A stretch of DNA of 64,000 nucleotides from Patescibacteria group bacterium (GTDB taxonomy: Bacteria > Patescibacteriota > Patescibacteriia > Patescibacteriales > WJLG01): contig JAQTUZ010000005.1 in NCBI GenBank assembly GCA_028707065.1, positions 3,334 through 67,333 on the forward strand. The letters run 5' to 3'. The notes below the pieces were generated by a model. The model saw only the letters and a program-made list of their open reading frames with translations, was not told the DNA's origin and searched no databases. Position 1 is the stretch's first letter. Each line of letters starts with the position of its first letter. The position numbers and the translations under genes were made by a program. This document shows, one piece after another, positions 13,447-64,000 of this stretch.

Positions 13447-13490
13447 AAAAACAAATAAATAAATTCCCTTGTAGCGAGCATTGAAAAATT

Positions 13491-13592
13491 TTGGACAAGA
13501 CGCGCAGCGTATCCTCCCAAGGCGGACAGGGAAGCCGTGCCCCGCCAACGGCGGGGCTAGGCTTCCTAGCGGAGTGATAGGAAATTTGTCCA
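13491..13592. ncRNA. candidate structured RNA (about 100-nt GC-rich extended hairpin), class unknown
   Basis: Nested pairings: tggacaa (13492-98)/ttgtcca (13586-92), ggaagcc (13530-36)/ggcttcc (13560-66), ccccgcc (13540-46)/ggcgggg (13450+100 = 13550-56). It lies in a 409-bp convergent spacer with no credible ORF and is much more GC-rich than its flanks. Confidence 0.3.
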
Positions 13593-13630
13593 GCGCGCAG
13601 TTTTCCTTGTCCCGTCATTTTTGCGGGATG

Positions 13631-13656
13631 CGCCACTTTTTTTAAAAAAAGTGGCG
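13631..13656. repeat. perfect 26-bp palindrome
   Basis: cgccacttttttt|aaaaaaagtggcg. Possibly a bidirectional terminator-like hairpin. Confidence 0.6.
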
Positions 13657-13684
13657 AAGATTTTTGACCTTAAAACGAACCTTA

Positions 13685-13737
13685 ACACACCCCGTCCCGC
13701 CGAGGCGGCGGTCCACCCCTCTCGAGAGGGGAATTTT
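13685..13737. repeat. GC-rich double-hairpin REP-like element
   Basis: acacaccccgtcccgccgaggcggcggtccacccctctcgagaggggaatttt. Hairpin 1 is cgccg/cggcg and hairpin 2 is cccctc/gagggg. Confidence 0.75.
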
Positions 13738-13747
13738 ATATGCCGAC

Positions 13748-13779
13748 AAAAAACCACCTTTATTCAAGGTGATTTTTTT
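13748..13779. terminator. bidirectional intrinsic terminator
   Basis: AAAAAA, stem cacctt (13755-60)/aaggtg (13766-71), then TTTTTTT (13773-79). It lies 12 nt past the stop of 13791..15542. Confidence 0.6.
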
Positions 13780-13790
13780 AGCTGAAATGA

Positions 13791-15542: not shown

Positions 15543-15557
15543 AGCTCCTTGTTATTT

Positions 15558-15713
15558 AAATCCAAAATCTTAAGCACAAAATCCAAAGCAAATCCAAAAT
15601 TCAAATGGTCAAAACTTATCCAAAGAGCGACCATCTATTCGCTGACAAAATATTTTCAATTTTAAATTTTAGATTTGTTTTGAGTTTTGGATTTTGAGCT
15701 TTGAATTTAGGAT
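15558..15713. repeat. intergenic inverted repeat built from AAATCCAAA words (family D)
   Basis: Left arm aaatccaaaatcttaagcacaaaatccaaagcaaatccaaaattcaaa. Right arm tttaaattttagatttgttttgagttttggattttgagctttgaatttaggat. The loop is about 56 nt. Confidence 0.75.
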
Positions 15714-15789
15714 CCAGGGCAAACCGATTGTTTCGCGAAATCAAATCATCCTTATTATAACTTAAATTCAAGAATACGACAATTTAAAA

Positions 15790-16881: not shown

Positions 16882-16945
16882 AAAAAATATTAAGATTGGA
16901 AATTGAATTTTAAAATTTCTAATTTCCAATTTCTAATTTCTAATT
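16840..16945. repeat. family C (GAAATTT) word repeats forming nested hairpins
   Basis: ggaaatttgaaatttgaaatttgaaattcg (16840-16869) overlaps the first codons of the downstream gene. Its partners are ttggaaattgaatttt/aaaatttctaatttccaa and aatttctaatttctaatt, up to 16945. Confidence 0.7.
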
Positions 16946-16946
16946 A

Positions 16947-21866: not shown

Positions 21867-21928
21867 ATTTAATTATTAACTCAATTTACGCCATAAACAA
21901 CTTATCCACAGCTATTATCCTTATTCAT

Positions 21929-21937
21929 ATTATACCA
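21929..21937 (-). promoter_or_regulatory. extended -10 promoter (TGGTATAAT) for 20103..21866
   Basis: Minus strand reads TTCATT, 17-nt spacer with TG, then TATAAT. It lies about 60 nt upstream of the ATG at 21866. Confidence 0.45.
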
Positions 21938-22098
21938 CTTTTCCGGAGCTAAATGAATTGCTCGCGCATTAGCAGAAAAAAGGCTAATTTTAAATTAATT
22001 TACAAATATCAATTATCGATAAGACCAGCTTGACCTTCAAATAACAATAGATAAGAATAGATCTTTTTTACTTTTTATTTTCTACTTTTTACTTATTT

Positions 22099-42614: not shown

Positions 42615-42738
42615 AATATCCAATAACCAATATCCAATACTTTAAACAATATTAAAATATAATAATATCTAAAATTTAAATTATTAAAATATTAAATTAT
42701 TTTTTTAAATATTTATTATTTGATATTGGATATTAATT
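42615..42738. repeat. intergenic inverted repeat built from ATATCCAAT words
   Basis: G-free arm aatatccaataaccaatatccaatac (42615-42640). C-free arm ttatttgatattggatattaatt (42716-42738). The loop is very AT-rich. Confidence 0.65.
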
Positions 42739-43354: not shown

Positions 43355-45202
43355 TTAACCGGTCCAGCAATACATCATGATGGAAAAATCGACCAGGTTG
43401 ATCTTGCCGTCTTGATTGATATCGGCATTGGCATTATTCGTTCCCCAGTAATACATTAAAATGGAAAAATCGACCAAATTGATCTTGCCGTCCTTGTTGA
43501 TGTCGGAGCGGGAACAAGGCCCTTGCTCGAGCTTCTGACCCACGCCGCAGAGGACTTTTTGGCTCAAAGTGCTTGAACCGATCTTGGCATAAGAAGTCAG
43601 CGCCGTTAATTCATAAATCCCCCGGCTCAATCCGGCGGTGGGAAAAATCGAACTCCAGCGGCCGTCGGCGCTAACTTTTTCTTTCTTGGCGCTTAGTAAT
43701 TTTTTGCCCGGGTCGTTCATTTGGACGATCACCCACACGTTGGGGGCGCTTTGTCCGGAAACGAAAATATTTTGGCCCAGCTCAATTGTCGTGCTGGCCA
43801 ATTTGATCGTCGGCGGAATCAAAATATTAGTCACATTCGTTTGCGTGTTAGCCTCGATCCAAAAAGTCGTGGGATAGGCGATCGAATTTATCCCTTCGGT
43901 GTCCTTGGCCACCAGGGTAAAAGTATATAATCCCTTTTTCAGGCTGCCGACCTCGGCAAAAAAACTGGCGTCAGGCCTGGCCAGCACCGATCCCAATAAC
44001 TGGCTATCCTGGGAAACGCCGATGCTCGAGCCGGGGTAAGCATAGCCGCTCAAAGCCACGCTGGGTAATTGCACGTTTTGGAGAGGAAAAGGCTTGAGGA
44101 TGCCCGTGCCTGAACCGCTGCCCGAACCCCTGCCTCCGCCGCCGCCACCGCCGCCTCCTCCGCCGCCACCGCCGCCCGTGCCGCCGCCGGTTCCCGTGCC
44201 CGTGCCGCCGCCCGTGCCGCCGCCCGTGCCGCCCTCGCCTTGCGCGGCCACGCAAAAATGAATGAGATAATCGTCAAAATTCACCGTGTCTTCGACAGTA
44301 TCGTGACAGCGGACAAAATAGGAAAAACAGCGGGCGCTGGATAAACCGGTGATCATGATGGTGTGATAGAGATCGTCGGAAGTATAAAATTCATCGGTCA
44401 TGTCGTAATAATCCGTCCCGCTCGCCACGCTATAGCGGCAAGTGGCGTCATAGTTGGTCGTTAAGGACATGATCGTCTGCGTTGTTTGCGCGGTCAAAGT
44501 GCCGGTCGGCAAACCGTTGGCGCGAATTTTTATCAAGCCCGCGCTCACCGCGACCGGCTCGACCATCACCACGAAAGTTCGGACATTATCAATGACCGCG
44601 TCGGCCGCGTTATAAGTCTTGACATCAAGCCAATAGCTTCCGGCGCTGGAGGCGTTGATGATCTGATTTACGCCCAAACCGCCAAAGGCGGCGTTCTTGC
44701 CCATTTTTATCCGCACTCGATCATGCGCGGCAATGCCCGTGGAAGAATTCAAAGTGATGGTGATCTTTCCTCCCTGGCCGGCAGTAACTGCCACGCCGTC
44801 GGTGCTGGTGGCGGCCACATCGCCCAACTGGCGATTGAGAAAAATATCAGTCCCGGAAGCGGCCACGGCCAGATCCAGATCAAAATAATCGAACAGAGCT
44901 GGGATGGCCAAGCCGTTATTGGCGAAGCTAATGACAATTTTTCCTCCCGGCGGCACTGCTTGAGCGGTATTAAAATTAACCAGATGATTAGTTGAAGTTG
45001 CCGGCCGAGAACTGTTGATCAGATCATAGGCTTGATATAAATTGGTGGCCCGGGCGGAAAAGGCCGAAATCAAAAAAACGGCCAGCAAACAAATAAAGCC
45101 GCCCAGGACCTGTTTGATAAGTCCATTTCTATCATGAAAGCGACTTATCCGGCCGGCTCTGGAAAAATAACTGATTTTGTTAAATTTTTTACCAGTGATC
45201 AT
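43355..45202 (-). CDS. secreted dockerin-containing protein with poly-Gly linker
   Basis: Signal anchor, an N-terminal beta-rich domain, the G/T-rich tract GGTGGGTGGGTGTGTGGGTGGGGGGGGGGGGGGG, and two Ig-like modules. The C-terminal dockerin pair is DINKDGKINLVDFSILM / DINQDGKINLVDFSIMM (43358-43516). Confidence 0.75.
   Translation of the reverse strand: MITGKKFNKISYFSRAGRISRFHDRNGLIKQVLGGFICLLAVFLISAFSARATNLYQAYDLINSSRPATSTNHLVNFNTAQAVPPGGKIVISFANNGLAIPALFDYFDLDLAVAASGTDIFLNRQLGDVAATSTDGVAVTAGQGGKITITLNSSTGIAAHDRVRIKMGKNAAFGGLGVNQIINASSAGSYWLDVKTYNAADAVIDNVRTFVVMVEPVAVSAGLIKIRANGLPTGTLTAQTTQTIMSLTTNYDATCRYSVASGTDYYDMTDEFYTSDDLYHTIMITGLSSARCFSYFVRCHDTVEDTVNFDDYLIHFCVAAQGEGGTGGGTGGGTGTGTGGGTGGGGGGGGGGGGGGGRGSGSGSGTGILKPFPLQNVQLPSVALSGYAYPGSSIGVSQDSQLLGSVLARPDASFFAEVGSLKKGLYTFTLVAKDTEGINSIAYPTTFWIEANTQTNVTNILIPPTIKLASTTIELGQNIFVSGQSAPNVWVIVQMNDPGKKLLSAKKEKVSADGRWSSIFPTAGLSRGIYELTALTSYAKIGSSTLSQKVLCGVGQKLEQGPCSRSDINKDGKINLVDFSILMYYWGTNNANADINQDGKINLVDFSIMMYCWTG
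44101..44240. repeat. GGN/GGT-ACC low-complexity tract (poly-Gly coding)
   Basis: Plus strand reads ccgccgccgccaccgccgcctcctccgccgccaccgccgcccgtgccgccgccgg..., encoding the Gly/Thr run of 43355..45202. Confidence 0.8.
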
Positions 45203-45678: not shown

Positions 45679-45847
45679 GAATTAGTTAACTGGTTAATTA
45701 GTTAATTAGTTTACAACTTAATAAGTTTAGTGATATAAAAAAATTAAAATATTATTTCATGTTTAAAAATAAACAACAGTCTTATTCTTTCTTTATAAAG
45801 TTGTAAAATTGTAGACTAATTAACCGATTAACTAATCAACTAACCGG
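45679..45847. repeat. family A inverted-repeat element with ~100-nt core
   Basis: Arms gaattagttaactggttaattagttaattagtttac (45679-45714) and gactaattaaccgattaactaatcaactaaccgg (45814-45847). The core shares aaaattaaaatattatttcatgttt with the core at 46799-46913. Confidence 0.8.
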
Positions 45848-46764: not shown

Positions 46765-46946
46765 ATTAGTTAATTGGTTGATTGGTTAATTAGTTGTGCA
46801 ATAGAAAATTTTTAAAGGATTTGACTCGGCCAAAAATTTAAAATATTGTTTCATTTTTTAAATCATTAAATTTCGATCGCCATATTTTATTGAACAAAAT
46901 TGATGAACCTGCAGACTAAGTGCCCAATCAACTAATTAACTAATTA
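46765..46946. repeat. family A inverted-repeat element with ~115-nt core
   Basis: Arms attagttaattggttgattggttaattagttgtg (46765-46798) and gactaagtgcccaatcaactaattaactaatta (46914-46946). Confidence 0.8.
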
Positions 46947-50754: not shown

Positions 50755-50830
50755 CTTCTTCCTTATTATTGTTATTTTTATTTATCCACCCTCCAATAAT
50801 TTTCAAAATATTTTTAAATAATGTCAGGAA

Positions 50831-50884
50831 TATACCCTCCCCGCCTCGCCGGGCTCGGCACCCCTCCCGAGGAGGGGACAAACA
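50831..50884. repeat. GC-rich double-hairpin REP-like element
   Basis: ataccctccccgcctcgccgggctcggcacccctcccgaggaggggacaaac, near-identical to 4684-4735. Confidence 0.8.
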
Positions 50885-50933
50885 AAAAAACCGCCGGTGT
50901 TCAACCAGCGATTTTATTTTTTGATAAAATATT

Positions 50934-51980
50934 TTAGTAGGTCGGCGTGCAGATGTAAGTCAGCGTACTGGCGTAATCGCCGGCTTCCTGCAGGGCGCTG
51001 ATCTCGATGGAATAAGCCACCGTTGACGAGCCGATGCCGGTAGTTAAACCATCAGAAGGGCCGTTATGATACATGACTTCAACCGGAGTCGTGTGCCAAA
51101 AACCTTTGTAAAGCGAGCCGGCGAAAGGATTGCCGTCGCTTAAAACCGTATCGCCGCTGGTCAGGCCAAGATGGCCGTAAGTGTGGGCATTGCCCAAAAC
51201 ACCGGTCGGCGGCGCCCAGGCCAAGGGCGTGGTGGAGGCGGCCGCGCCGTCTCTGAATGAATCGATATCGGCGCCATTGCTGGCTAGCAAATTATGATCC
51301 TGCTCGACCGTGACCGTATAGCCATAATTGGCGTTAGTGGTGACATTCAATTTCTGGCACATGGTCTTTTCGACTCCCGGAGTAAGAACTCCGAAAGCTA
51401 AAGTATTAAAAGTCGAGGAGGCGGTGCAGGGAACGCCGTTAACCGAAGTGGAAGTGGTCGAGGCTATGCCGGTAATCGTAAAAGTCAAGGAAGCTTCGAC
51501 AGTCGCGGTTACGGCCACGCTGTTGACGATCGCCACGCGGAAAGTGGAATGCTCGATCAGCGCTCCGCCGCTGGCCTTAGTATTAATGGTGATCAACTGG
51601 CTGCCGACCGTGGCCGGATTGGTAGTCCCGCTCAAAGTGATCGTGTAAAGGCCGACGGCCAGACCTCCCGTATAAGCGCAAGTTACGGTGTTGCCGGTTC
51701 CACCCTCGTCTCCCGCGTTGGGACAGATTAAATTACCCGACGAAATATCAGTGAAAGCCGCGGGAAAAATTATTTCAATATAGCCGTTAGCGCCGATCGC
51801 CTGGGTGGTCGAAGCGACGATCGTGTGCGTGACGTTGGCCTCCAATACATCGGAACTGGAAATCGTATCTTTGACACTCTCCATTGATATCGCGTTAGTG
51901 ACCCGGGGAACCGAACCATACATCAACAGCATGCTGAGCATGAGCAATCCGATGATAAATTTTCGTCTTGAAATTTTCAT
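50934..51980 (-). CDS. secreted protein with WxL-like C-terminal domain shared with giant-2
   Basis: Signal peptide. The C-terminal ~190 aa align with the giant-2 tail: SLTFTITGI/SLTLTVAGL, LAFGVLTPG/VPFGVLAPD, NANYGYTVTV/NAEWGYSLYA, and ending AGDYASTLTYICTPTY/AGDYSTNIVYILVPTY. Confidence 0.55.
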   Translation of the reverse strand: MKISRRKFIIGLLMLSMLLMYGSVPRVTNAISMESVKDTISSSDVLEANVTHTIVASTTQAIGANGYIEIIFPAAFTDISSGNLICPNAGDEGGTGNTVTCAYTGGLAVGLYTITLSGTTNPATVGSQLITINTKASGGALIEHSTFRVAIVNSVAVTATVEASLTFTITGIASTTSTSVNGVPCTASSTFNTLAFGVLTPGVEKTMCQKLNVTTNANYGYTVTVEQDHNLLASNGADIDSFRDGAAASTTPLAWAPPTGVLGNAHTYGHLGLTSGDTVLSDGNPFAGSLYKGFWHTTPVEVMYHNGPSDGLTTGIGSSTVAYSIEISALQEAGDYASTLTYICTPTY

Positions 51981-52111
51981 ATTTTTTTTCTTGCCTTACC
52001 AGCCGACCGTCGGGAAATAATTATTTATAAATACTTTAAAAATAGCCTCCTATTCCGCTTAAGCGATAGCTTGCTTAGGACGCGTTCAGAATAATTTTAT
52101 CTCCTCGTTTT

Positions 52112-52120
52112 ATTATACCA
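52112..52120 (-). promoter_or_regulatory. extended -10 promoter (TGGTATAAT) upstream of 50934..51980
   Basis: Minus strand reads TTATAA, 17-nt spacer with TG, then TATAAT. A second TATAAT lies 22 nt further upstream. The leader to the ATG at 51980 is about 125 nt. Confidence 0.45.
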
Positions 52121-52201
52121 TAATTCAGTTTAAATTATAACCCCCTGTCTATCTTTATTAGCCTATTGACCTTTTAATATCTTTTCCCTTTAATTTTGGC
52201 T

Positions 52202-52258
52202 AAAAAAAGAATGAATAAGCTCAAAATTAGAAATTTGAAATTCGAAATTTGCTTGAGC
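52202..52258 (-). terminator. weak terminator candidate after giant-2
   Basis: Stem gctcaa (52219-24)/ttgagc (52253-58) encloses GAAATTT words. The U-run (plus aaaaaaa 52202-08) lies 10 nt away from the stem. Confidence 0.3.
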
Positions 52259-52270
52259 CTGTGGATAAAC

Positions 52271-55200
52271 TTAGTAAGTCGGCACCAAGATATACACAAT
52301 ATTCGTCGAGTAATCCCCGGCCGGCTGCAGGCTGCCGATGCCGGCGCGGAAAATTAAATCGAAGGTTTCATCGGTCACCGGAATCGAACTGTAAGAAATT
52401 TCCTGGTTGCTTGAATCAAATTGCGCGTAAGTGTTATCGGCGGCAAAGCGCGAAGGCGCCGCTCCGGAAAGAGTATCGTCGCCGGAATGATAACCGAAAT
52501 CGCTCGGGTTGAAGACAACAGGCCAAGCCGCGGGCGAAGCGTTAGTCCAAGGAACCGGATTTATTATCGCTCCGTTCGAACTGATGAAATCGTTGGTTTG
52601 GAAGGCATACAAACTGTAACCCCATTCCGCGTTAGTGGAGACGGTAAACCGCTGCGCGCCGATCACCTGATTGTCGGGAGCAAGCACGCCGAACGGAACG
52701 CTCGCCTCGCTGGTCGTCGCGGTGGTGACGATTCCTTCCGTGGCCGTGCCGGCCGGCAGTCCGGCCACGGTCAAGGTCAGGCTGCCGGCGGCGGCGATCA
52801 GACTCGGGTAAACAGCATAAGGTTTGGTGGGAATCGGCTGATCAATATTATTATCGTAACCGCGGAAATAATAAACGGTTCCGGAAGCCGCGCCATTGTT
52901 CCTGATGGTAAATTCCCATTCGCCCCAGCTGTTGGCCGGCTGCACGGCCGAGGAAGTGGAAATACCGGATTCGTTATGAGTCATCTTTGCCGTGGTCGTG
53001 CTTAGTAATAAATTTTGGATCGGATCATTATCCAGATCAATGCCATCGGCATAAGTCCAATCGGTAGTTGAGCTGATCTCCCCTACCCAATTTACGTCAG
53101 TTAAAAAATCAGAATAAGTGGAATACTGCAAACGGATCTTGGTATCAAGCGCGTCAAGACCCTGGATTTCCTGGAAAGCCATTCTTAATTTCATTATTTG
53201 TCCGTCCGTGATATTGTTTGGCGTCGCGTTTTCATCAGCCAGCGGAATTTGCGGCGTTTCATTATATTGATCCTGATACCAGCGCCAGGGACCGCCCGAG
53301 CGCTTAGTGCTCCAGAGATAAACGGAAATTTCTTCCGAGGAACTGGATTTATTGCCGTATTGATCATAAGCCCAGATGCGGAAGACGTATTGCTGGTTGG
53401 CCGTCAAGCCGGTGACGGTCGTGGTGGCCGCGCTGTTATAATCGGCGTAACCCAAATTAGGATCGGACGTCGATCCCCAAAGCGAATCGCTCTCGGTTAC
53501 GCCCGAACTGCCTACCTTATAATATATCCGGTACTCTTTAAAGTGGGTGTCCGAGGATGCCGAGCCGAACACCAGAGTGACCGAACCGGTGGTTTTGCTG
53601 GTGGTGGCCAAGTTCCCCGGATTGGTCGGCTTGACCTGATCGATGATGACCGTGGTGGTGGCCGAGACGGTTTGATTGTCATAACCGTCGTAGGCCGTGC
53701 CGCGCAAACAAAAAATTTGATCAATGCCGGAGACATCATTCAAGGTCGGCCAATCAAAAGCCACGGTATTGGTGCCGTAAGCCGTGATGATCATATTGCC
53801 GGTAGTGGAGCCGATCTGATAGGTTTCGCTATTGTCGATATCGGGAAGCCCGTAAGTCGCGCTCACCGAGGCCGGATCAGTATCCAGAGTAGGATCAAGC
53901 GACGAGCCGAAATCGCAGGAAGAATTGGCCCCGAATTCCAGCTTGAGCTGGGTGGGATAACCGGCCGGATGCGAAACGTTTAAAGTCATTCTGACCACTG
54001 CTGAACCGTCTCTTTTTTGCTGCGCGGACAAGAAAGAGCTGTCAGGCGGCGGCGATAAGGTCAATTCCGGATAGCGTGTGTAAGCGTCCAATACCTGACC
54101 GTTCTTCAAGACGCGGAAACAATAAGTCTGGCCGGCCGCGGCATTGGTGGTCGCCTGGAAAGCATATTCCAATTCAGTATATTCGTTAGCGCCCAAAGTG
54201 GTCGAGGCGCTTTGATTGCTCAAGGCCTTGATCAAACTGCCAGGCACGAAATTGTAGCCCTCGGCATTATTAAAGCGCTGGACGGTCGGTTCGCCGTTGA
54301 AGAAATAGCTGGAATCGATCATGGCAAAATCATCGGCGGCCGTGGTGGTCGGCACATCATTCCAGGAAACCACCGCCGCGCAACTGGCCGCCTTATCCGC
54401 GTATTGCACTTTGTATTGATCTGTTGTTGACCAATCGCCGATATTGGCCACGCTGATCCTGACTCTGACTGGTTTTTCCTTGCCCAGATAAAGAATGTTG
54501 GTCGGATCAACCGTGTCCTCGGCCTCGCGCCAAGTCGCGCCTGTGCTGCTATACGTGGTGGTGGACACCTGGTTAACAGCCGACGATTTATTGCCGTAGT
54601 AATCATAGGCCCAGATATTAAAGGAATATTGGGCTACCGCGGTCAAATTAGAGACCGCGGTGGTGGCTTTGCCGTTATAATCGGCAAACCCCAAGTTATA
54701 ATCCAGCGCTTTGGTCAAAGACAGATCGGCTTCGGTGACCGTGGCCGTGCCGACTTGGTAGAAAACTTTATATTCCCGGAAATGCGAATCAGCCGCGGCC
54801 GAACCGAATTTCAAGAAAACATAATCGCCATTAACGCGGGAGACAGAGAGATCGCCAGGGGTGGAGGGCGCGGCATTATCGATCACTAAACTGGTGGTGG
54901 CCGATGCAAGTTGATCATTTTTTCCATCGTTGATCGTCAAGCGCAAACAATAAATTCCGTCGCCGGTTGGCAAATCCAAGCCAGCGAGCCAATCGAAGTT
55001 AACCGTGTTCGGCCCGCTGGTAGTGATAATCCGGGAAGCGTCGCCGATTTGATAAGCGTTATTATTATTAAGATCCGGGTGGCCGAAGCTGGCGCTGATC
55101 GTGGAACTGGCGTTGTTCAAAGTCGGGTCAAGCGGCGAGCCATGGCAATCGGCATCGGCAAAATATTCCAGCTTGGCCGCGACCGAATCGCCGTCCGGGT

Positions 55201-58200
55201 CGCTGGTAGTGAAGGAAATGTCGACCACGCCGCTGCCGTTGGTTTCCTCGGCGGCCGAATTGAAGGTCCCGGTCGGCAAATGATCAGTGGAATAAGTTGT
55301 TTCCGTGGAACTGGCTTTATGCCCGTAATCATCATAAGCGAAAATCTTAAAACTGTACTGTTTGCCGCCGGTCAGCCCGGTCGCGGTGGTCGTGGCCGCG
55401 CCATTATAATTAATGTAGGCGAGATTGGCATCGGACAATTCCGTGTCGCTTTCGGTAACGCCGGTCCCCTGCTTATAGAAAATGCGGTAGCTTTGGAAAT
55501 TGGTTTCCCGGGTTGCCGCGCCAAAAACAAGTTCCAGATAAGTCGAACCTCTTTTGCCCAAAGTCAAAGCGCCGGGAGCGGTCGGTTTGATATTATCGAT
55601 GACTAGCGAAGTCGTGGCCGGCGCTGCCTGATCTTCAATTCCGTCGTTAGCGGTTAAGCGCAAACAATAAACCGCGTTGCCGGCCGGCAGATCGATCGTG
55701 GAAAGCCAATCAAAATTAACCGTATTGGCGCCGGAGCTGGTAATGATCCAGCCGCTCGAATTGCCGATCTGGTAAGCGTTGGTGTTGCTGATCTTAGCAT
55801 CGCCATAAGTGGAAGTGGCGGTATAATCGGTTTCGTCCAAAGTTGTCGCGTATGGCGCGCCCACGCAGCGGGAATTGGCGAAGAACTCCAGCTTGGCTTT
55901 TAAATTATCCTGGTTGGCATCGTTGGCGATAATGGCGATGTCCACCCGGCCCGAGCCGTCGGTCTGCTCTGAAGCCGAGGCAAAACTCGCGGTCGGAAGA
56001 GCGTTGGTGGTCGCGGTCAATTCGGACGTGGAGCTGGCTCGCCTACCTGTTGAATCATAAGCGTAAATATTAAAGACGTATTGAGTATTGGCCGCCAAAT
56101 TAGCAATAGTGGTCGAACCCGCGCCGTTATAATTAATGTAGGCGAGATTGGCATCCGAGCTTGAACCCCAGAGCGAATCGGTTTCCTTTACGCCGCTCGA
56201 CCCGGCTTGGTAGAATATTTTATATTGAGTAAAGAAGGCTGAAGCGCTTTCTGCTCCGAAATTCAAGGTCAAGCTATGCGAAGTCTTGGAATCCAAGGTT
56301 AACGCGCCAGGAAGAGTCGGCCCATTGCCCGAGACCGTGAAGTTCGGCACGGTATCATTGAACTTGGTCCAATTGGAACAGGCATTTTCTTCGTCGCAAA
56401 CCAGCGCTTGCCATTTATAACCGACTGCCGAATCCGGCAGACCGGGGACAGTAACTTGATCGCCCATGCCGGTTCTTGTCTCTTCGGCACCGGCATTGGT
56501 AAATGATTCCGGATCATTTTGATTGCGATAAGTCGTGCTTATCCAAGCGGCGCCGGCCTTAGTGTCCGCCACGGTGATTTCATCAAGCCGGCCGTCAAAA
56601 CCTAAGCCAATTCGCAGCGGCTGATCATTGGTTTCGGGCGCGGTGGAAAAAGTGGTGCTGGCCTGTGATTGGCCGTTCAGCTTAAGTTCCAAATGAGAAC
56701 TATCCCCGAGCAAAGTGAAATATTGCCAGCTATCAGTGGCGATCAGCGCGTCCACCGTGGTCGTGCCGTAACCAGCCGAGAGATAACTCCCCTTTTGCGA
56801 AACTTGATAATTTTGCTTATCCGCGATGATCCGGGGATTGGCCAAAGCGGATAGTCCGCTCGCGTTCGAAGAAATTCGCCACTCGCCTACCCAATCGCCG
56901 CTGCCGTTCACCACTCTGACAATGATGGTATTCCAGCCTTGTTTCAAATCGACCGCGTTAACCAGAGCATCAGCCGTGAAGCCGTGGACCTGGCAATCGG
57001 CCGAAATCAAACGGCCGTTCACCCACAATTCACTGCCGTCATCAGAACCGCGGGAAATATTGACCGTGCGGCCATCCGGCGAATAAATGTAAGCTCCGAC
57101 ATAAGCTTCGGAGTTCACCGCCGTGTTTCCCCAAACTTTGTTCAAATCGATCGAATAGGGCGCGGCCTGATAATAAACCGAGGACAAACTGGTATCATAA
57201 ACTTTCCAGGATGAGCCGTTAGCCCAAGTGTCGCTGCCATAAGTCGCGCCGGAATAAGGATCAATCATGGCCGGATCAAAAGCGCCCGCGGGAGCGCAAT
57301 CCGCTCCGCCGTCAGCAGGCCATTTCAAGCCGACAAATTGATAACGGGCCTCGCCGCTACCTGACAAACTGTCGACTGTCGCCGTATCCGGGTTGATCCA
57401 GCCGGAAACGGTCAAACCGCCGGTAATATCCAAACTGGCCGAATTCGCCGCCTGCAAAAATTTGTTGGCGCTGTTAAAATCATCAGCTCCGTCAATAATG
57501 CCGGCGCGGCCTTTTTCGCTGCCGTCAAAATTATGGGTCGCGGCATTATTGGCGTTAACGGTCGAGTCTAATCTCGCCCCGGTGCCAGATTCGGCTAAAT
57601 GCCAGACAGCCTGATAATCGCTGTTCCAAGTATTAGCCGAAGAAAGATCGGCGGTTTGGCCGGAGTTGCCGTAATACAGATAAATATCAGTGTCAACGCT
57701 CGCCGAAAGACCGGACTTGACCCAGAATTCGTATTCACCCGTCGTGGAATTGAATTTCTCTTGGGCAAAATTCAATAGGGTCCGGCCGTCAGCGGCGGTA
57801 AAAATGATATCATGTCCGTCGGCGCGGGCCTTGGCCGCCAGATCAGCATCGGTAGCCGTGGCGATCAAGATCGGGAAGTCAGTGAGATCAGCGGCCACTT
57901 GCGCGTGATTAACAGTGATCTTCCGGCGATACAACCAGCCGGCGTTATACCAATCGGACGGGCCCGAGGAAGTGGCGGCCGCCCAGATTTTGGCGGCGCA
58001 AGAATTAAAGGCGGTATTGCTCGCACAAGTTGTTCCTGGCGCGGAAGTCGCAGTAGTAAACCCAGTCCCATTATCCAACAATTGGAAATAGAAAGTGGTG
58101 CTGGTGGAATCCGTATCCACCACATTGGCCCGCAGCTTTACCGTAGCCTGATCAATGACCGCGCCGTTGAGAATGGGCGTGCCGTCGCTCTTGGTCTGTT

Positions 58201-61200
58201 TAAGGTCATTGGGGTTATCCGGCTTTTGGTTGATTTTGAAACTGACCGGAGTGGCGCTGGCTTTATTGCCGTAATCATCGTCAGCCCAGATATTGGCCGC
58301 ATACCAATTGCCCGCGGTCAAGCCGCTAATGGTGGTCGTGGCCGCGCCGTTATAATTCTGATAATTCAAATTGCTGTCGGTCTTTTCATTGTCCGTTTCC
58401 GCCACCGGCGGGCTGCCGGTTTTGTAGAAAATCCGGTAGCGGTAAAAATTAGCTTCCGCGGCCGCGGCGCCATAATTCAAGATCGCGCTGCTGCCGACTT
58501 TTTTGTTGATTGTCAGATTGCCCAGCCCGGTCGGGGCTTTATTATCAATATACAAGGCGGTGGTGGTCGCCGTCGAATCATATGATCCGTTATTAACGGT
58601 CAGGCGCAGACAATAAGTCCCTTCGGCCGCCGGCACATCCGCCTGGGAAAGCCAGACGAAGTTGACGGTGTTGGCGCCGTCAGAGGTGCTGATGTAACCG
58701 GTGCTGGTGCCGACCTGATAGGAATTTTTATTCTGGATGACCGGAGTGCCGGTCGAGGCGGAGATCGATGACGGGTCTTCGTCCAAAGTCGGCTTAAGCG
58801 GCGAGCCGGTGCAGCCGGAATTGGCAAAATATTCCAGCTTGGCGCGAGTATCATAGTCATTAGGATCATCGGCGGTAATGGAAATATTAATGCGCCCCGA
58901 ACCATCAACCTGCTCCGCGGCGGAATTGATCACGCCGGTCGGACCGACCGGGGTCTTGGTGGTGAATTCAGGGCTGCTGGAAGCTTTATTGCCGTAAAGA
59001 TCATAAGCCCAGATATTGAAAACATAATCAGTATTGGTATTCAAGCCGGCGATTGTCGTGGTGGCATGGCCGGAATAATCAAGGACGCTTAGGACCGCGT
59101 CCGAGGAAGAGCCGAACAGGGTATTATGTTCATTAACGCCGCTGGTTCCCGCTTTATAATAAATTTTATATTGGCGGAAATTGGTTTCGGTGGCGGCCGT
59201 GCCGAACAAAACAGTCACGCTGTTGATGGTTTTTTTGCTCAAAGTCAAAGCGCCCAAAGCAGCCGGCGGGGCATTATCAATGATCAAAGTGGTCGTGGCC
59301 GACTTGGTGCCGCCGCGATTGTCGTTCGCCGTGACCCGGAGACAATAGATACCATCACCGGCGGGCAGATCAGTTTTACTCGGCCATTCAAAATTGAGCG
59401 TATTATTACCGAAGGAAGTCAGGATCCAGCCGGTCGAGGTGCCGATCTGGTAATCATTTTTATTTTGGATGGTCGGGTGGCCGAAGAAAGCGGATGAATG
59501 CGTATATCTCTCATCAAGCGCTGCCTTAAGCGGGCTGGAAAAATCGCAGCTGGAACCGGCCGCGTATTCCACTCTCGCCATTGTTTGATTGTCGCCGTCC
59601 GGATCGCCGACCAGCAAGGAAATATCCACCACCCCCGTGCCATTTGTTCTTTCCGCCGCTGAATTAAAAATAATGGTCGGCAAGCGGTCGGTGCGCTCCC
59701 AGATCATCGTCGAGCTGGTTTTACCGCCGTAATTATCATAGGCCCAAATCGAGAAACTATAAGCCGTGCCGCTATTTAAGCCGGTGACAGTGGTGGAAGA
59801 TTTACCGTTGAAATCGATCGCGCCCAAATTAGCATCCGAGCTGGAACCCCAGAGCGAGTCGGTTTCGCGAACCGGCGTGGTTGAACCGACGCGATAATAA
59901 ATTTTATACTGCGAAAAACCAGCGCCCGTGACCGGAGCGGGGTAGCCAAGTTTCATCGAAGCGGAACTTGAAGCGATCACGGTCAGCGGACCGGGCGTGG
60001 AAAGATTGGAGCTGGCCAGAATGAAATTGGGAATGGTTTCATTGAATTTCTTCCAGGCTCTCGAGCAGCCGTCGGCATCGCAAGCCAAGGCCTGCCATTT
60101 GTAACTTCCAAAAGGAATATTCTTTAAATCGACTTTTACGGCATTGGCCGCCAGCCAAACTTTGCTGGAACAGCCGGCGTAGGCGGTGCCGGAAGAGCAG
60201 GCATTGCTCGGCGTGGAAGTGGAAGTTTTAAACGATTCCGAGCTGGTGGCCAGCTGGTAATAAATAGTCACTGAATCGCCGTCCGCGTCGGTCGTGGTCG
60301 CGTAAAGATTAACTTCATCAATATCCAACCAGGAATTATTAGGAATAACAGTAATGCCATCGGACCGATATTGCTCCAGGTTATCGGGAATCGCCGGGAA
60401 ATTCTTGGTCGCCGTGGAGAATTCAGTGGAACTGGCTTTGTTGCCGGCCGAATCATAAGCGTAAATATTGAAAACATATTGCGTGCCGGCGTTGAGGCCG
60501 GAGATAGCAGTAGTGGCATGGGAAAGATAAGTTTGTGAACCTAACGCCGCGTCAGAAGAAGAACTGAAGAGTATATCGCTCTCGGTAACGCCGGAGGAAC
60601 CGACTTTGTAGAAAATCTTGTATTGGGAGAAATTGGTTTCATCGGTGGCCGAGCCAAAAAAGAGATCAATGGAAGTATCGGTTTTTTTGCTTAATGACAA
60701 ATCGCCGGGGGCGGTCGGGTCGGTCTCATCATTCGTAAAGTTAGGCGTGCCGGCGTCAAAGGCCTTCCAGTTTCGCGCGCAGCCGTCAATATCGCAAGCT
60801 AACGCCTGCCATTTATAGCTGCCCTCGGGGATAGCTTTAATGTCGGCCGGGGAATTGTTGCGCCAAACCTTCGACGGGCAGGAAGCATAAGCGGTGCCGG
60901 ACGAGCAAGCATCGGCCGGAGTCGTAGTGGCGGTAAGATACGAACCGCTCGTCGAGGCTAATTGATAATAGAGAGTGACGGGGTCGGCATCGGCATCGGT
61001 GGTGGTGGCAAAAAGATTGACTTCGTTTTGATTGATGAAGGCGCCATTGGGTATGACCGTAATTCCGTCGGCGCGATATTGGATAAGACCGGAAGCTTGC
61101 GCCGGGAAATTCTTGGTGGTGGTGGTGAATTCGGAAGTGCTACTGGCGATGTTGCCGTAAGAATCATAGGCGAAAAGATTGAACACGTAGGCCGTGCCGG

Positions 61201-64000
61201 AATCAAGACCGCTGATGGTGGTGGTGGCGTGGCTCAAATATGTCTGCGAAGCGAGAGCCGGATCGCTCGAAGAGCCGAAGAGCGTATCGGTTTGCTTCAC
61301 GCCCGCGGTACCGGCTTTGTAGTAGATCTTGTATTGGGAGAAATTGGTTTCAACTGCTTGGGCATTGAAATTGACCGTGATCGAATTATCGTTTTTCTTA
61401 GATAAGGTGAGCGGACCGAAATCAGCCGGCGCTTGGTTATCGATAATGAGCGAGGTGGTGGCGAAAGCGGTGGCGCCGCGGTTGTCATTGACCGAAAGCT
61501 GGAGGCAATATATTCCCTCCCCGGCGGGCAGATCATTTTTAGAGAGCCAAACCGTGTTGACCGTATTCGCGCCCGAGGATGTCAAAATCCAGCCGGTTGA
61601 GGTACCGATCTGATAAGTATTTTTGTTCTGGACTTTGGGATCGCCGTAGGTCGCGGTGGTATTGGCATCGGTTTCATCGAGCGTGGTTGGCGCTCCGGAA
61701 CTATGGCAATATTGATCGGTGAAATATCGCACTTGCGCCATCACCTGATCGTCCTGGTCCGGATCAGAAACAACGAAAGACAGATCAGCCTTGCCGGTAG
61801 CATCGATCCGTTCGGCCGCGGAATTAATAATGATGGCGGGATTGCGGTCGGTGCGGTCCCAGATCAACGTGGAGCTGGATCGATTGCCGGCTTGATCATA
61901 GGCCCAGAGCGAAAAACTGTAAGTAGCGGCCGGAGTAAGACCGGTAATGGTAGTCGAGGACTTGCCGTTGAAATTGAGAGAACTCAAATTAGGATCAGAG
62001 CTCGAGCCCCAGAGCGAGTCGGTTTCGCGGATGGGCGTGGTCGAGCCGAGGCGGTAGTAGATTTTATATTGCTGAAAATTAGTTTCCGTAACCGCGGCAG
62101 GTATTCCGAGCTTGATCGAAGTAGTGGAGGAAGCAAGGCGGGTTAAAGGATCGGGAGCGGAGGGCGGCGCAGTATCAACGATGAAATTGGGAACCGAGAC
62201 TTCGAATTTTTTCCAGGCTGTTGAGCAGCCGTCCATGTCGCAGGCCAAAACTTGCCACTGGTAATCATTATCGGGAATGGTTTTGATATTGACTTTTTTG
62301 GTGGCGGCCGGAGTATACCAGACTCGGGACGGGCAGGAAGCATAAGCCGTGCCGGACGAACAAGCATCGGCCGGAGTCGTGGTGGCGGTAAGATACGAAC
62401 CGCTCGTCGAGGCTAATTGATAGTAGAGAGTGATGGGGTCGGCATCGGCATCGGTGGTGGTGGCGAAAAGATTGACTTCGTTTTGATTGATAAAGGCGCC
62501 ATTGGGTATAACTGTCACTCCGTCGGCGCGATATTGGATAAGACCGGAAGCCTGCGCCGGGAAATTTTTGGTGGTAGTGGTGAATTCGGAAGTGCTCGAA
62601 GCGATGTTGCCGTAAGAATCATAGGCGAAAAGATTGAACACGTAGGCTGTGCCGGAATCAAGACCGCTGATGGTGGTGGTGGCGTGGCTCAAATATGTCT
62701 GCGAAGCGAGAGCCGGATCGCTCGAAGAGCCGAAGAGCGTATCGGTTTGCTTCACGCCCGCAGTACCGGCTTTGTAGTAGATCTTGTATTGGGAGAAATG
62801 GGTTTCCGTGGTTTCCGAGCCAAAGACAAGCGTGACCGAACTGTCATTCTTTTTGTTCAAAGTTAAATTACCCGGGCTCGTCGGGGCAACGTTATCAATG
62901 ACGATCGAAGTGGTGGCAAAAGCAGTGGCGCCGCGGTTATCGTTGATCGTCAGCTTGAGGCAATAGGTGCCATCGCCCGCGGGCAGATCAGACAATGATT
63001 GCCAAATTGTGTTAACCGTATTAACGCCGGAAGAAGTCAGGATCCAGCCGGTTGAGGTACCGATCTGATAAGTATTTTTGTTCTGGACTTTGGGATCGCC
63101 GTAAGTGGCAGTGGTGTTGGCATCGGTTTCGTCGATCTCGGCCTGGTTTCCTGCCGCCCGACAATATTGATCGGAAAAATATTGCACTCTGGCCATCACC
63201 TGGTTGTCCTGATCCGGATCATTAACCGCGAAAGCCAGATCAACCATGCCGGTGCCGTCAAATCGTTCAACAACTGAATTTATCGCCAGAGTCGGATCGC
63301 GATCAGTGCGATCCCACATCAAACTGGAACTGGATTTACGGCCAGCCTGGTCATAGGCCCAGAGCGAAAAACTGTAAACCGTGGCCGGAGTCAAGCCGGT
63401 AATAGTCGTCGAGGATTTGCCGTTGAAATTAATGTCGCTCAAATTAGGGTCCGAACTTGAACCCCAAAGCGAATCGGTTTCGCGGATCGGTGTAGTGGAA
63501 CCAAGGCGATAAAATATCTTGTATTGACTGAAGCTGGAAGCGGTTATTGGCGCGGGGAAACCGAGCTTGATGGAAACAGTGGTGGAAGCGATCCTGGTCA
63601 AAGGATCGGGAGTCGAAGGCGGAATCATGCCGATCCTGAAGTTGGGGATCGAGTTATTGAAAGTTTTCCAATTTCTTGAACAACCGTCAATATCGCAGGC
63701 TAACGCTTGCCATTTGAAATCGCCATCGGGAAACGCGGTAATATCGGCTTTTTTGGTGGCGGCGGCAGTGTACCAAACGCGGGAAGGGCAGCTTGCCCAG
63801 GCCGTACCGGATGAGCAGGCATTGACCGGAGTGGTGGTGGCCGTAAGATAGGCGCCGCTGGTAGTGGCTATTTGATAGTAAAGAGTGATGGGGTCGGCAT
63901 CGGCGTCGGTGGTAGTGGCAAAAAGATTGACCTCATCTTGATCAATGATCGCGCCATTAGCAATCACCGTAATACCATCAGCTTGGTATTGTTCAAGGCT
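52271..64000 (-). CDS. giant modular surface protein, 5' end beyond the window (more than 3910 codons in window)
   Basis: The frame stays open to position 64000; the codons before the track start read SLEQYQADGITV, which continues the module pattern. It contains fn3-like, Ig-like (Cys-pair) and DPDxD-rich modules, one DUF2341-LamG cassette and a WxL-like tail. Confidence 0.85.
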   Translation of the reverse strand, partial: SLEQYQADGITVIANGAIIDQDEVNLFATTTDADADPITLYYQIATTSGAYLTATTTPVNACSSGTAWASCPSRVWYTAAATKKADITAFPDGDFKWQALACDIDGCSRNWKTFNNSIPNFRIGMIPPSTPDPLTRIASTTVSIKLGFPAPITASSFSQYKIFYRLGSTTPIRETDSLWGSSSDPNLSDINFNGKSSTTITGLTPATVYSFSLWAYDQAGRKSSSSLMWDRTDRDPTLAINSVVERFDGTGMVDLAFAVNDPDQDNQVMARVQYFSDQYCRAAGNQAEIDETDANTTATYGDPKVQNKNTYQIGTSTGWILTSSGVNTVNTIWQSLSDLPAGDGTYCLKLTINDNRGATAFATTSIVIDNVAPTSPGNLTLNKKNDSSVTLVFGSETTETHFSQYKIYYKAGTAGVKQTDTLFGSSSDPALASQTYLSHATTTISGLDSGTAYVFNLFAYDSYGNIASSTSEFTTTTKNFPAQASGLIQYRADGVTVIPNGAFINQNEVNLFATTTDADADPITLYYQLASTSGSYLTATTTPADACSSGTAYASCPSRVWYTPAATKKVNIKTIPDNDYQWQVLACDMDGCSTAWKKFEVSVPNFIVDTAPPSAPDPLTRLASSTTSIKLGIPAAVTETNFQQYKIYYRLGSTTPIRETDSLWGSSSDPNLSSLNFNGKSSTTITGLTPAATYSFSLWAYDQAGNRSSSTLIWDRTDRNPAIIINSAAERIDATGKADLSFVVSDPDQDDQVMAQVRYFTDQYCHSSGAPTTLDETDANTTATYGDPKVQNKNTYQIGTSTGWILTSSGANTVNTVWLSKNDLPAGEGIYCLQLSVNDNRGATAFATTSLIIDNQAPADFGPLTLSKKNDNSITVNFNAQAVETNFSQYKIYYKAGTAGVKQTDTLFGSSSDPALASQTYLSHATTTISGLDSGTAYVFNLFAYDSYGNIASSTSEFTTTTKNFPAQASGLIQYRADGITVIPNGAFINQNEVNLFATTTDADADPVTLYYQLASTSGSYLTATTTPADACSSGTAYASCPSKVWRNNSPADIKAIPEGSYKWQALACDIDGCARNWKAFDAGTPNFTNDETDPTAPGDLSLSKKTDTSIDLFFGSATDETNFSQYKIFYKVGSSGVTESDILFSSSSDAALGSQTYLSHATTAISGLNAGTQYVFNIYAYDSAGNKASSTEFSTATKNFPAIPDNLEQYRSDGITVIPNNSWLDIDEVNLYATTTDADGDSVTIYYQLATSSESFKTSTSTPSNACSSGTAYAGCSSKVWLAANAVKVDLKNIPFGSYKWQALACDADGCSRAWKKFNETIPNFILASSNLSTPGPLTVIASSSASMKLGYPAPVTGAGFSQYKIYYRVGSTTPVRETDSLWGSSSDANLGAIDFNGKSSTTVTGLNSGTAYSFSIWAYDNYGGKTSSTMIWERTDRLPTIIFNSAAERTNGTGVVDISLLVGDPDGDNQTMARVEYAAGSSCDFSSPLKAALDERYTHSSAFFGHPTIQNKNDYQIGTSTGWILTSFGNNTLNFEWPSKTDLPAGDGIYCLRVTANDNRGGTKSATTTLIIDNAPPAALGALTLSKKTINSVTVLFGTAATETNFRQYKIYYKAGTSGVNEHNTLFGSSSDAVLSVLDYSGHATTTIAGLNTNTDYVFNIWAYDLYGNKASSSPEFTTKTPVGPTGVINSAAEQVDGSGRINISITADDPNDYDTRAKLEYFANSGCTGSPLKPTLDEDPSSISASTGTPVIQNKNSYQVGTSTGYISTSDGANTVNFVWLSQADVPAAEGTYCLRLTVNNGSYDSTATTTALYIDNKAPTGLGNLTINKKVGSSAILNYGAAAAEANFYRYRIFYKTGSPPVAETDNEKTDSNLNYQNYNGAATTTISGLTAGNWYAANIWADDDYGNKASATPVSFKINQKPDNPNDLKQTKSDGTPILNGAVIDQATVKLRANVVDTDSTSTTFYFQLLDNGTGFTTATSAPGTTCASNTAFNSCAAKIWAAATSSGPSDWYNAGWLYRRKITVNHAQVAADLTDFPILIATATDADLAAKARADGHDIIFTAADGRTLLNFAQEKFNSTTGEYEFWVKSGLSASVDTDIYLYYGNSGQTADLSSANTWNSDYQAVWHLAESGTGARLDSTVNANNAATHNFDGSEKGRAGIIDGADDFNSANKFLQAANSASLDITGGLTVSGWINPDTATVDSLSGSGEARYQFVGLKWPADGGADCAPAGAFDPAMIDPYSGATYGSDTWANGSSWKVYDTSLSSVYYQAAPYSIDLNKVWGNTAVNSEAYVGAYIYSPDGRTVNISRGSDDGSELWVNGRLISADCQVHGFTADALVNAVDLKQGWNTIIVRVVNGSGDWVGEWRISSNASGLSALANPRIIADKQNYQVSQKGSYLSAGYGTTTVDALIATDSWQYFTLLGDSSHLELKLNGQSQASTTFSTAPETNDQPLRIGLGFDGRLDEITVADTKAGAAWISTTYRNQNDPESFTNAGAEETRTGMGDQVTVPGLPDSAVGYKWQALVCDEENACSNWTKFNDTVPNFTVSGNGPTLPGALTLDSKTSHSLTLNFGAESASAFFTQYKIFYQAGSSGVKETDSLWGSSSDANLAYINYNGAGSTTIANLAANTQYVFNIYAYDSTGRRASSTSELTATTNALPTASFASASEQTDGSGRVDIAIIANDANQDNLKAKLEFFANSRCVGAPYATTLDETDYTATSTYGDAKISNTNAYQIGNSSGWIITSSGANTVNFDWLSTIDLPAGNAVYCLRLTANDGIEDQAAPATTSLVIDNIKPTAPGALTLGKRGSTYLELVFGAATRETNFQSYRIFYKQGTGVTESDTELSDANLAYINYNGAATTTATGLTGGKQYSFKIFAYDDYGHKASSTETTYSTDHLPTGTFNSAAEETNGSGVVDISFTTSDPDGDSVAAKLEYFADADCHGSPLDPTLNNASSTISASFGHPDLNNNNAYQIGDASRIITTSGPNTVNFDWLAGLDLPTGDGIYCLRLTINDGKNDQLASATTSLVIDNAAPSTPGDLSVSRVNGDYVFLKFGSAAADSHFREYKVFYQVGTATVTEADLSLTKALDYNLGFADYNGKATTAVSNLTAVAQYSFNIWAYDYYGNKSSAVNQVSTTTYSSTGATWREAEDTVDPTNILYLGKEKPVRVRISVANIGDWSTTDQYKVQYADKAASCAAVVSWNDVPTTTAADDFAMIDSSYFFNGEPTVQRFNNAEGYNFVPGSLIKALSNQSASTTLGANEYTELEYAFQATTNAAAGQTYCFRVLKNGQVLDAYTRYPELTLSPPPDSSFLSAQQKRDGSAVVRMTLNVSHPAGYPTQLKLEFGANSSCDFGSSLDPTLDTDPASVSATYGLPDIDNSETYQIGSTTGNMIITAYGTNTVAFDWPTLNDVSGIDQIFCLRGTAYDGYDNQTVSATTTVIIDQVKPTNPGNLATTSKTTGSVTLVFGSASSDTHFKEYRIYYKVGSSGVTESDSLWGSTSDPNLGYADYNSAATTTVTGLTANQQYVFRIWAYDQYGNKSSSSEEISVYLWSTKRSGGPWRWYQDQYNETPQIPLADENATPNNITDGQIMKLRMAFQEIQGLDALDTKIRLQYSTYSDFLTDVNWVGEISSTTDWTYADGIDLDNDPIQNLLLSTTTAKMTHNESGISTSSAVQPANSWGEWEFTIRNNGAASGTVYYFRGYDNNIDQPIPTKPYAVYPSLIAAAGSLTLTVAGLPAGTATEGIVTTATTSEASVPFGVLAPDNQVIGAQRFTVSTNAEWGYSLYAFQTNDFISSNGAIINPVPWTNASPAAWPVVFNPSDFGYHSGDDTLSGAAPSRFAADNTYAQFDSSNQEISYSSIPVTDETFDLIFRAGIGSLQPAGDYSTNIVYILVPTY
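52274..52830 (-). other. giant-2 C-terminal WxL-like domain
   Basis: SLTLTVAGLPAG...VPFGVLAPDNQVIGAQRFTVSTNAEWGYSLYA...LQPAGDYSTNIVYILVPTY, homologous to the C-terminus of 50934..51980. Coordinates are approximate. Confidence 0.45.
56510..57935 (-). other. giant-2 DUF2341-like + LamG-like cassette with an inserted PA14-like segment
   Basis: WLYRRKITVNHAQVAADLTDFPILIA (about 57900-57935), then IYLYYGNSGQ (about 57670). The PA14-like block is YVGAYIYSPDGRTVNISRGSDDGSELWVNGRLI..LKQGWNTIIVRVVNGSGDW (about 56880-57300). It ends WISTTYRNQNDPESF. Coordinates are approximate. Confidence 0.45.
60872..64000. repeat. tandem 1,455-bp (485-codon) super-module repeat inside giant-2
   Basis: Units start at about 60872, 62327 and 63782, the last cut by the window edge. 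The cores 60872-61350 and 62327-62805 differ at roughly 20 of ~480 positions by eye, while the rest of the unit is more diverged. Confidence 0.8.

Follow-up and report, generated by a model that had tools for sequence, protein, structure and literature searches.

How can two segments of a tandem repeat be almost identical when the repeat units that carry them have otherwise diverged? This question is raised by the second of two giant genes in a 64,000-nucleotide (nt) stretch of DNA from a Patescibacteria group bacterium (contig JAQTUZ010000005.1 of assembly GCA_028707065.1, positions 3,334 to 67,333 of the forward strand), which in the following we call the window. The gene is encoded on the minus strand, with its stop codon at 52271-52273 and its frame still open at base 64000, such that it continues past the window, as a preliminary description of this DNA had already stated. 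Counting from codon 1 of the visible part (64000..63998), 3,909 codons plus the stop are seen. Within this part a core of ~480 bp occurs twice, one period of 1,455 bp apart. From the comparison with an orthologous gene we conclude, with a probability of roughly 0.85, that the core represents a single, lineage-specific gene-conversion tract that arose after the split from the lineage of the Candidatus Falkowbacteria genome MFD01188.bin.1.43.

A near-identical core within diverged repeat units

To detect self-matches we scanned the gene (52271-64000) against itself using an ungapped offset scan. By far the strongest match was found at an offset of 1,455 bp, where 383 of 400 bases agreed. The resulting pair, 60872-61351 and 62327-62806, differs at 22 of 480 positions (95.4% nt identity), and its longest exact run measures 113 nt. 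Given a background mismatch rate of 28%, the probability of finding 22 or fewer mismatches over this length is ~2e-40. At the protein level 3 of 160 residues differ (H401N, V495I and I523V). No other tract with at least 92% identity over 150 bp was found in the region of 28-64 kb. Two other approaches missed this pair: Tandem Repeats Finder, with a longest period of 500, is blind to a 1,455-bp repeat and found nothing at the locus, while an identity-filtered blastn self-comparison overlooked the tract, the high-scoring segment pair running into the 72% identical flanks. The offset scan was therefore used instead.

Outside the core the identity at the same offset is far lower. It amounts to 72% between 61352-62326 and 62807-63781 and to 76% between 62327-62545 and 63782-64000. 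Below 60872 it is at the random level because a 3-codon indel and then a different module order follow. The period, the core coordinates, the count of about 20 mismatches and the more strongly diverged flanks given in the preliminary description were all reproduced, and the divergence is not uniform along the unit. For the near-identical protein block, the start had been placed too late: the block opens ~20 residues earlier, at ...ETxFSQYKIYYKAG.

The repeat unit of 485 aa (1,455 bp) is made of four consecutive beta-sandwich domains that we labelled X, Fa, B and Fb. The core begins just before strand C of Fb, passes through the linker and ends at about residue 81 of the next X, so that both of its ends lie inside domains. 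The segments of the array, all on the minus strand, are:

52271..64000, minus strand: 3' part of the giant gene, coding for serial FN3/Ig-like beta-sandwich modules and one DUF2341; the N-terminal part is encoded outside the window, past 64000
60872..61351, minus strand: downstream core copy (residues 884-1043), running from the last ~80 aa of the FN3 module Fb across the linker into the first ~80 aa of the following X; putative donor
62327..62806, minus strand: upstream core copy (residues 399-558); putative acceptor
61352..62326, minus strand: diverged rest of tandem unit 1 (in the phase of the preliminary description) with the C-terminal half of X, Fa, B and the N-terminal third of Fb; 72% nt identity to 62807-63781, synonymous divergence (dS) ~1.2, site patterns favouring orthology with the Falkowbacteria copy
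62807..63781, minus strand: diverged rest of tandem unit 2; 72% nt identity to 61352-62326, with dS and site patterns as for unit 1
63782..64000, minus strand: start of a third tandem unit at the window edge, N-terminal half of X (residues 1-73)

The 22 mismatches of the core are found mainly at third codon positions (17) and comprise 15 transitions and 7 transversions, with 16 synonymous codon changes. Various types of substitution occur (T>C 6, A>G 4, C>T 3, and others). They are spread unevenly, with 3 in 206 nt against 19 in 274 nt (permutation p = 0.053). This hints at nested conversion events within the core; the value is borderline, and we make no such claim.

The core copies coalesce after the species split

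Among species-representative genomes, a protein-guided scan revealed a related gene on contig CAVVFV010000008.1 (331,635 bp) of the Candidatus Falkowbacteria metagenome-assembled genome (MAG) MFD01188.bin.1.43. The visible window protein aligns end to end to residues 6337-10246 of the encoded protein with 78.8% amino acid identity and a single 1-aa gap over 3,909 aa. The gene neighbourhood is conserved as well (n348, n301, n615, n582, gene 1 and n526) and includes the 348-aa gene, the FGE-sulfatase-like, dockerin and cohesin genes, the giant gene 1 and the 526-aa gene. The end-to-end alignment together with the synteny identifies the Falkowbacteria gene as the ortholog.

We built a four-sequence codon alignment from the upstream and downstream window copies (W_up and W_dn) and their positional orthologs (F_up and F_dn) and classified the informative sites as supporting orthology, concerted evolution or the cross pattern. 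The left flank yielded 33, 17 and 2 such sites and the right flank 74, 2 and 3. In the core the counts were 1, 36 and 3. The site pattern switches at residues ~399 and ~559, while the flanks keep the orthology pattern on both sides. The tract is thus discrete, with a border at either end.

Substitution levels obtained with the Nei-Gojobori method agree with this. Between the window paralogs the core exhibits a dS of 0.15 and a non-synonymous divergence (dN) of 0.017, compared to a dS of ~1.2 and a dN of 0.13-0.20 in the flanks. Since it is the synonymous divergence that falls within the core, the near-identity is not due to selection on the protein. Furthermore, in the core the paralogs are closer to each other than to their orthologs: W_up and W_dn share 95.4% of their nucleotides, W_up and F_up 67%, and W_dn and F_dn 77.5%. 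The paralog dS of 0.15 is lower than the dS between orthologs in this segment (0.73), which shows that the core copies of the window coalesce after the species split. Both units are present with orthologous flanks in the sister species, so that the units themselves predate the split. In the ortholog the corresponding core stretches, F_up and F_dn, share just 67% nt identity, with a dN of 0.26. Late coalescence of the core within older units excludes recent duplication as well as conservation and identifies a gene-conversion tract specific to the lineage of the window. The start of the third unit, 63782-64000, is outside the conversion, as it is just 76% identical to either core copy (residues 1-73 have 76.3% nt identity to residues 486-558 and 76.7% to residues 971-1043).

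Gene conversion or a recent partial duplication had been offered as the causes of the patchy identity. The former is in agreement with our data; the latter is not, given that the units exist in the ortholog and that their core stretches are only 67% identical there. Also the term "ongoing", which had been attached to the process, is too strong: measured against the synonymous distance to the sister species, the 22 substitutions since the event amount to ~20%.

The ortholog possesses two tracts of its own. One spans 1,078 bp, with 97.8% identity, and links units that are separated by three periods (aa 5512-5871 versus 6968-7327; coding-sequence nt 16535-17612 versus 20903-21980), the other 358 bp at 93% (aa 2334-2453 versus 3406-3525; nt 7000-7357 versus 10216-10573). 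These tracts are independent of the one in the window and indicate that exchange between modules recurs in this gene family.

Direction of copying and course of the event

The direction of copying was judged, with one outgroup only, from the sites at which the window copies agree and the ortholog copies differ. At 87 of these sites the window copies match F_dn and at 40 they match F_up (binomial p 4e-5), with ratios of 58:27 and 29:13 in two sub-segments of the core. W_up is 78% identical to F_dn, compared to 67% for its own positional ortholog F_up, and does not have the extra residue of F_up (DPLAL in F_up versus DP-AL). The identity between W_dn and F_dn (77.5%) is near that of the left flank (79%) and below that of the right flank (85-86%). 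Of the 15 Fb-X junction copies in the ortholog, the downstream copy's own counterpart comes closest to the window core (78.5% aa identity). The site counts, the best junction match and the missing F_up residue point to the downstream copy, 60872-61351, as the donor and to 62327-62806 as the acceptor. The upstream copy was thus likely overwritten in a non-reciprocal exchange.

The course of events was probably as follows. After the split from the MFD01188.bin.1.43 lineage, one non-reciprocal homologous recombination between misaligned repeats would have replaced the homologous stretch at 62327-62806, one period upstream, by ~480 bp copied from 60872-61351. The tract ends where the homology drops, i.e. 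at the diverged Fb segment on one side and at the 3-codon indel in X on the other. Its disregard of domain borders would be expected of a process acting at the DNA level. Since then the 22 mostly synonymous differences have built up between the copies.

Several points weigh against this account or limit its detail. In the left flank 17 of 52 informative sites are of the concerted type, and older exchanges blur the left border. Just one orthologous genome resolves both copies; loci L005, L007 and L020 of the JAQUPS MAG, being too strongly diverged or fragmented, do not qualify as a second outgroup. Unit number was compared with this one species-level ortholog. Connectivity across the 113-nt identical run within the core is taken from the assembly. 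Regarding polarity, the 1,078-bp tract of the ortholog overlaps F_dn in part of the core, which weakens the direction signal there, the unaffected part giving 29:13. The donor could also be a different copy of the downstream type, located in the ~19 kb by which the gene extends beyond the window. Finally, the mechanism, which we take to be of RecA type, may have operated on one chromosome, between sister chromosomes or via DNA taken up from a close relative.

Alternative explanations

Of the alternatives, an assembly artefact fares best, and we still consider it quite unlikely. In this case the repeat would have been mis-threaded or duplicated, or strains mixed, and the pair would be absent as drawn from any genome. 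Repeats of this family indeed break short-read assemblies: two related partial proteins (P0002 and P0007) are located at contig ends, and a Logan contig of SRR22315508 (3.6 kb), which reproduces 50850-54467 with 100% identity, stops at 54467 before the repeats are reached. The 22 differences are, however, compatible with coding, as seen from the 16 synonymous codon changes and a frame without interruption over 3,909 codons. The flanks of either copy are unique and follow the same order as in the independent 331-kb contig, with no module gained or lost. As to assembly collapse, for which the preliminary description saw a hotspot here, the module count in the window equals that of the independently assembled ortholog. 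Like tracts are present in the Falkowbacteria assembly too, and the longest exact run is merely 113 nt.

It is still less probable that the near-identity is the remnant of a young unit duplication, formed by recent tandem duplication or unequal crossover. Arrays of this kind do grow by unequal crossover, and the copies here are spaced by precisely one period, in frame. A single such event would, however, produce near-identity over the full 1,455 bp, of which only 480 bp are near-identical here. It would also have to be younger than the species split, which the orthologous flanks of both units and their saturated dS of ~1.2 contradict.

Purifying selection on a functionally constrained Fb-X junction, by which the segment would have remained near-identical in both units, has hardly any probability left. 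Within the protein block 98% of the residues are shared, and some parts of FN3 and X show good conservation throughout the family. Constraint on the protein does not account for a synonymous divergence that is ~8-fold lower in the tract, for a pair in the sister species with only 67% nt identity and a dN of 0.26 over the core segment, or for a third copy of the X half within the window that is 76% identical.

Programmed diversification, either by a diversity-generating retroelement with its template and variable repeat pair or by cassette-type antigenic variation, would come with a different signature. Variable repeats of retroelements are typically far shorter than 480 bp. Surface proteins are a typical target of such systems, and recombinational reshuffling and antigenic variation have been speculated upon for Patescibacteria (PMC11809585), but the differences are mainly third-position transitions rather than adenine-specific and the architecture is conserved between two species, such that we give this explanation next to no weight. 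Reverse transcriptase, invertase or integrase domains were not found in the scanned open reading frames of the window (Pfam/NCBIfam); based on the substitution spectrum and the lack of a reverse transcriptase in these frames, a diversity-generating retroelement or other programmed variation was rejected.

The giant protein and its repeat unit

In the visible protein, Pfam detects fn3 in 9 stretches (E 8e-59, 196 bits versus a cut-off of 25) and DUF2341 with 29.6 bits versus a cut-off of 23.4, i.e. both above threshold. An FhaB domain was not detected in the visible part. Using hidden Markov models (HMMs) of the domains built in this analysis, 25 X, Fa, B and Fb modules were recognised. They are arranged in the order X-Fa-B-Fb / X-Fa-B-Fb / X-Fa-X-Fa-B-Fb-B-Fa-X ... 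(DUF2341 region) ... X-Fa-B-Fa-B-Fa-B-Fa. Judged from this sequence, the gene would encode a very large extracellular protein of a Candidatus Falkowbacteria-like member of the Patescibacteria, with FN3/Ig-like modules aligned like beads on a string.

The orthologous locus, at 71764-108476 of its contig, provides the part that lies outside the window. It was obtained from three overlapping loci (L006, L004 and L003) that merge without conflict into 36.7 kb. Its open frame comprises 10,246 codons (30.7 kb) in a small-genome organism; with the first Met at codon 11, the gene has 10,236 codons. The N-terminus starts with MLYKIIKNKNTRYILAGVIAALLVFVYVNYV... and forms a hydrophobic N-terminal helix, and P0007 begins likewise. 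The ortholog contains 30 FN3 motifs and 66 recognisable modules, including six consecutive Fa-B-Fb-X units. With these units and ~6,337 further N-terminal residues in the ortholog, additional units beyond the window, which the preliminary description had held possible, are very probable. The window probably holds only the last ~38% of a protein of ~10,000 aa; ~6,300 N-terminal residues, with up to four further tandem units, are probably missing. The hydrophobic N-terminal helix of the ortholog, the rod architecture of FN3/Ig-like modules and the analogy to giant adhesins would be consistent with a role at the cell surface in adhesion, possibly as a long attachment fibre. If ~4 nm are assumed for each beta-sandwich domain, such a fibre with its 66 or more domains would measure a few hundred nm.

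One unit (residues 478-962) was modelled with AlphaFold2, which gave four all-beta domains with a mean predicted local distance difference test score of 85.7. A sequence search of the PDB with the unit returned no match. With Foldseek the top PDB matches of the model were four-domain FN3 strings, fibronectin FN7-10 (1fnf) and LAR FN1-4 (6tpw). These eukaryotic multi-FN3 rods share with the predicted fold the four serial beta-sandwich domains, but their sequence identity is just 13-15% and their TM-scores are low as the inter-domain angles differ. The modelled likeness is one of fold class only, not of family kinship. Two further segments are defined by the domain models:

61118..62569, minus strand: complete super-module in domain phase, with X at 62186-62569, Fa at 61844-62185, B at 61430-61843 and Fb at 61118-61429
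58952..60406, minus strand: older, diverged third X-Fa-B-Fb super-module (residues 1199-1683), with 61% aa identity to unit B over 481 aa

An X-Fa insert separates the super-module at 58952-60406 from the tandem pair. The tandem array of 485-aa super-modules in the middle of the protein is the product of old duplications.

The preliminary description had also proposed that recombination between the units would allow the cell to change the number of modules. The one comparison available gives no support for this and argues against frequent change: the window protein and its ortholog are colinear, and module number and order are the same in both species across the whole visible part. In principle such a change is possible, the longest exact run being 113 nt and a deletion staying in frame.

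The plus strand has a strongly positive guanine-cytosine (GC) skew at 60001-64000 of the window (+0.18, compared to about 0 to +0.1 elsewhere), so that in the repeat array the coding strand, i.e. the minus strand, is markedly enriched in C. The source could be a protein rich in Thr, Ser and Ala whose codons end in C.

The first giant gene of the window (28105-40533, minus strand, 4,142 aa) contains three DUF2341 domains, Laminin_G_3 and fn3. It carries one X-Fa-B-Fb super-module at about residues 1381-2007, with 54% aa identity to the unit of the second gene. Its Falkowbacteria ortholog (~5627-18107 of locus L019) was matched in two frames that join near 10614-10618 of this locus, which is either due to a frameshift or to a long-read sequencing error.

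Relatives in databases

The database proteins nearest to the giant protein originate from Patescibacteria MAGs. None of the matches is longer than ~1,900 aa, and none exceeds 65% identity in its best BLASTP segment. A protein-guided scan of metagenome contigs returned no relative, and exact 50-mer scans of genome and metagenome contig collections returned no contig that would carry the gene beyond base 64000. Via the neighbouring proteins, only the 3.6-kb Logan contig of SRR22315508 was recovered.

P0002, encoded at 1-3636 of locus L007 (JAQUPS010000004.1, Patescibacteria MAG STD1_31), is a partial protein at a contig start that looks like a hybrid of both giant genes. Orthology to giant gene 1 (73%) is seen for its last 510 aa and for the neighbours downstream. 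Its residues 217-703 are closest to the unit of the second gene (74%), and residues 2-696 to residues 4303-5002 of the Falkowbacteria ortholog of that gene (67%). This hybrid is either a true recombinational fusion or a short-read mis-join across repeats.

Other elements of the window

Two paralogs with cohesin + Big_13 and one protein with a dockerin domain are encoded between or beside the giant genes (40856-42604, 13791-15542 and 43355-45202, all on the minus strand); GCC-rich tandem repeats are present in the dockerin gene (44132-44233). These genes suggest that a surface assembly of the cohesin-dockerin type is encoded in the locus. AT-rich tandem motifs of 8 bp are found intergenically among the surface-protein genes at 42648-42701, 45680-45727 and 46765-46796 (AATATTAA in 6.8 copies, AATTAGTT in 4 and 2 copies), which might be promoter or regulatory repeats.

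A GC-rich intergenic element of ~64 bp occurs at 4667-4730 and 50815-50878, with 92% identity between the copies and a shared exact 30-mer (CCCCGCCTCGCCGGGCTCGGCACCCCTCCC) for which the chance expectation is 0. One copy is located just downstream of the 348-aa gene that adjoins the giant gene. The predicted fold of the element was no better than that of shuffled sequence. An Rfam scan returned only the tRNA. A protein of 646 aa (8239-10179, minus strand) has N-terminal motifs like those of VirD4/TraD coupling proteins and a CxxC-x17-CxxC zinc-ribbon near residues 504-535, with scores far below the family cut-offs.

Relation to known systems and significance

Concerted evolution by intragenic gene conversion occurs in tandem domain repeats of surface proteins such as staphylococcal SasG/Aap, streptococcal Rib/alpha-C and the giant adhesins of the Bap and SiiE type. 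Similar to the locus studied here, repeats of these proteins are closer within a genome than orthologs are across genomes, the exchange takes place at the DNA level regardless of domain borders, and the host protein is long, repetitive and extracellular. The window differs from these cases in that its unit is a 485-aa four-domain super-module and that the units are otherwise old (~72% nt identity). Rather than wholesale homogenisation of near-identical repeats, it exhibits one discrete, datable tract of 480 bp, the direction of which can be inferred. Spidroin repeats of spider silk are a eukaryotic parallel of intragenic concerted evolution (PMC3933166).

For Patescibacteria, proteins of more than 4,000 aa with DUF2341 and/or FhaB have been described, and reshuffling of their domains by homologous recombination has been speculated upon (PMC11809585). 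The giant protein of the window resembles these in phylum, in DUF2341, in size class (10,236 codons in the ortholog) and in the putative role in adhesion or host interaction. It differs from them in that FhaB was not detected in the window protein and that its body is made of FN3/Ig-like modules. The locus adds direct sequence evidence of recombinational exchange between modules, which the cited work did not show. The giant genes of Omnitrophota are also repetitive, with membrane-anchored, extracellular products, and their repeats fragment assemblies (bioRxiv 10.1101/2023.11.21.568195). They are alike in being repetitive giants of the adhesion type, and a cohesin/dockerin context is found near the window gene too. 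Omnitrophota are, however, another phylum, and their giants carry HEAT/TPR or dockerin/thrombospondin repeats and exceed 30,000 aa; no homology is claimed.

A more far-reaching, and in our view doubtful, idea is that ectopic recombination among the many Fb-X junctions (at least 15 in the ortholog) is frequent and selected, being intragenic and cassette-free. If this were true, episymbiotic Patescibacteria would make mosaic variants of a host-contact fibre of ~10,000 aa for antigenic or host-range variation, and the tract in the window as well as the 1,078-bp and 358-bp tracts of the ortholog would be fixed traces of this recombination.

Gene conversion as such is well established for other surface proteins rich in repeats, and the locus is a new, well-resolved instance of it that changes no general view. 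What it provides is a clean and datable conversion in a giant gene full of repeats, from a bacterium that is uncultivated, ultra-small and genome-reduced, with defined borders, lineage specificity and a direction that can be inferred. Giant genes of this kind are likely fragmented or mis-joined in short-read MAGs. For very large Patescibacteria surface proteins the tract lends support, at the level of the sequence, to the recombinational reshaping that has been speculated upon (PMC11809585), while the module architecture has nonetheless been stable between both species compared.

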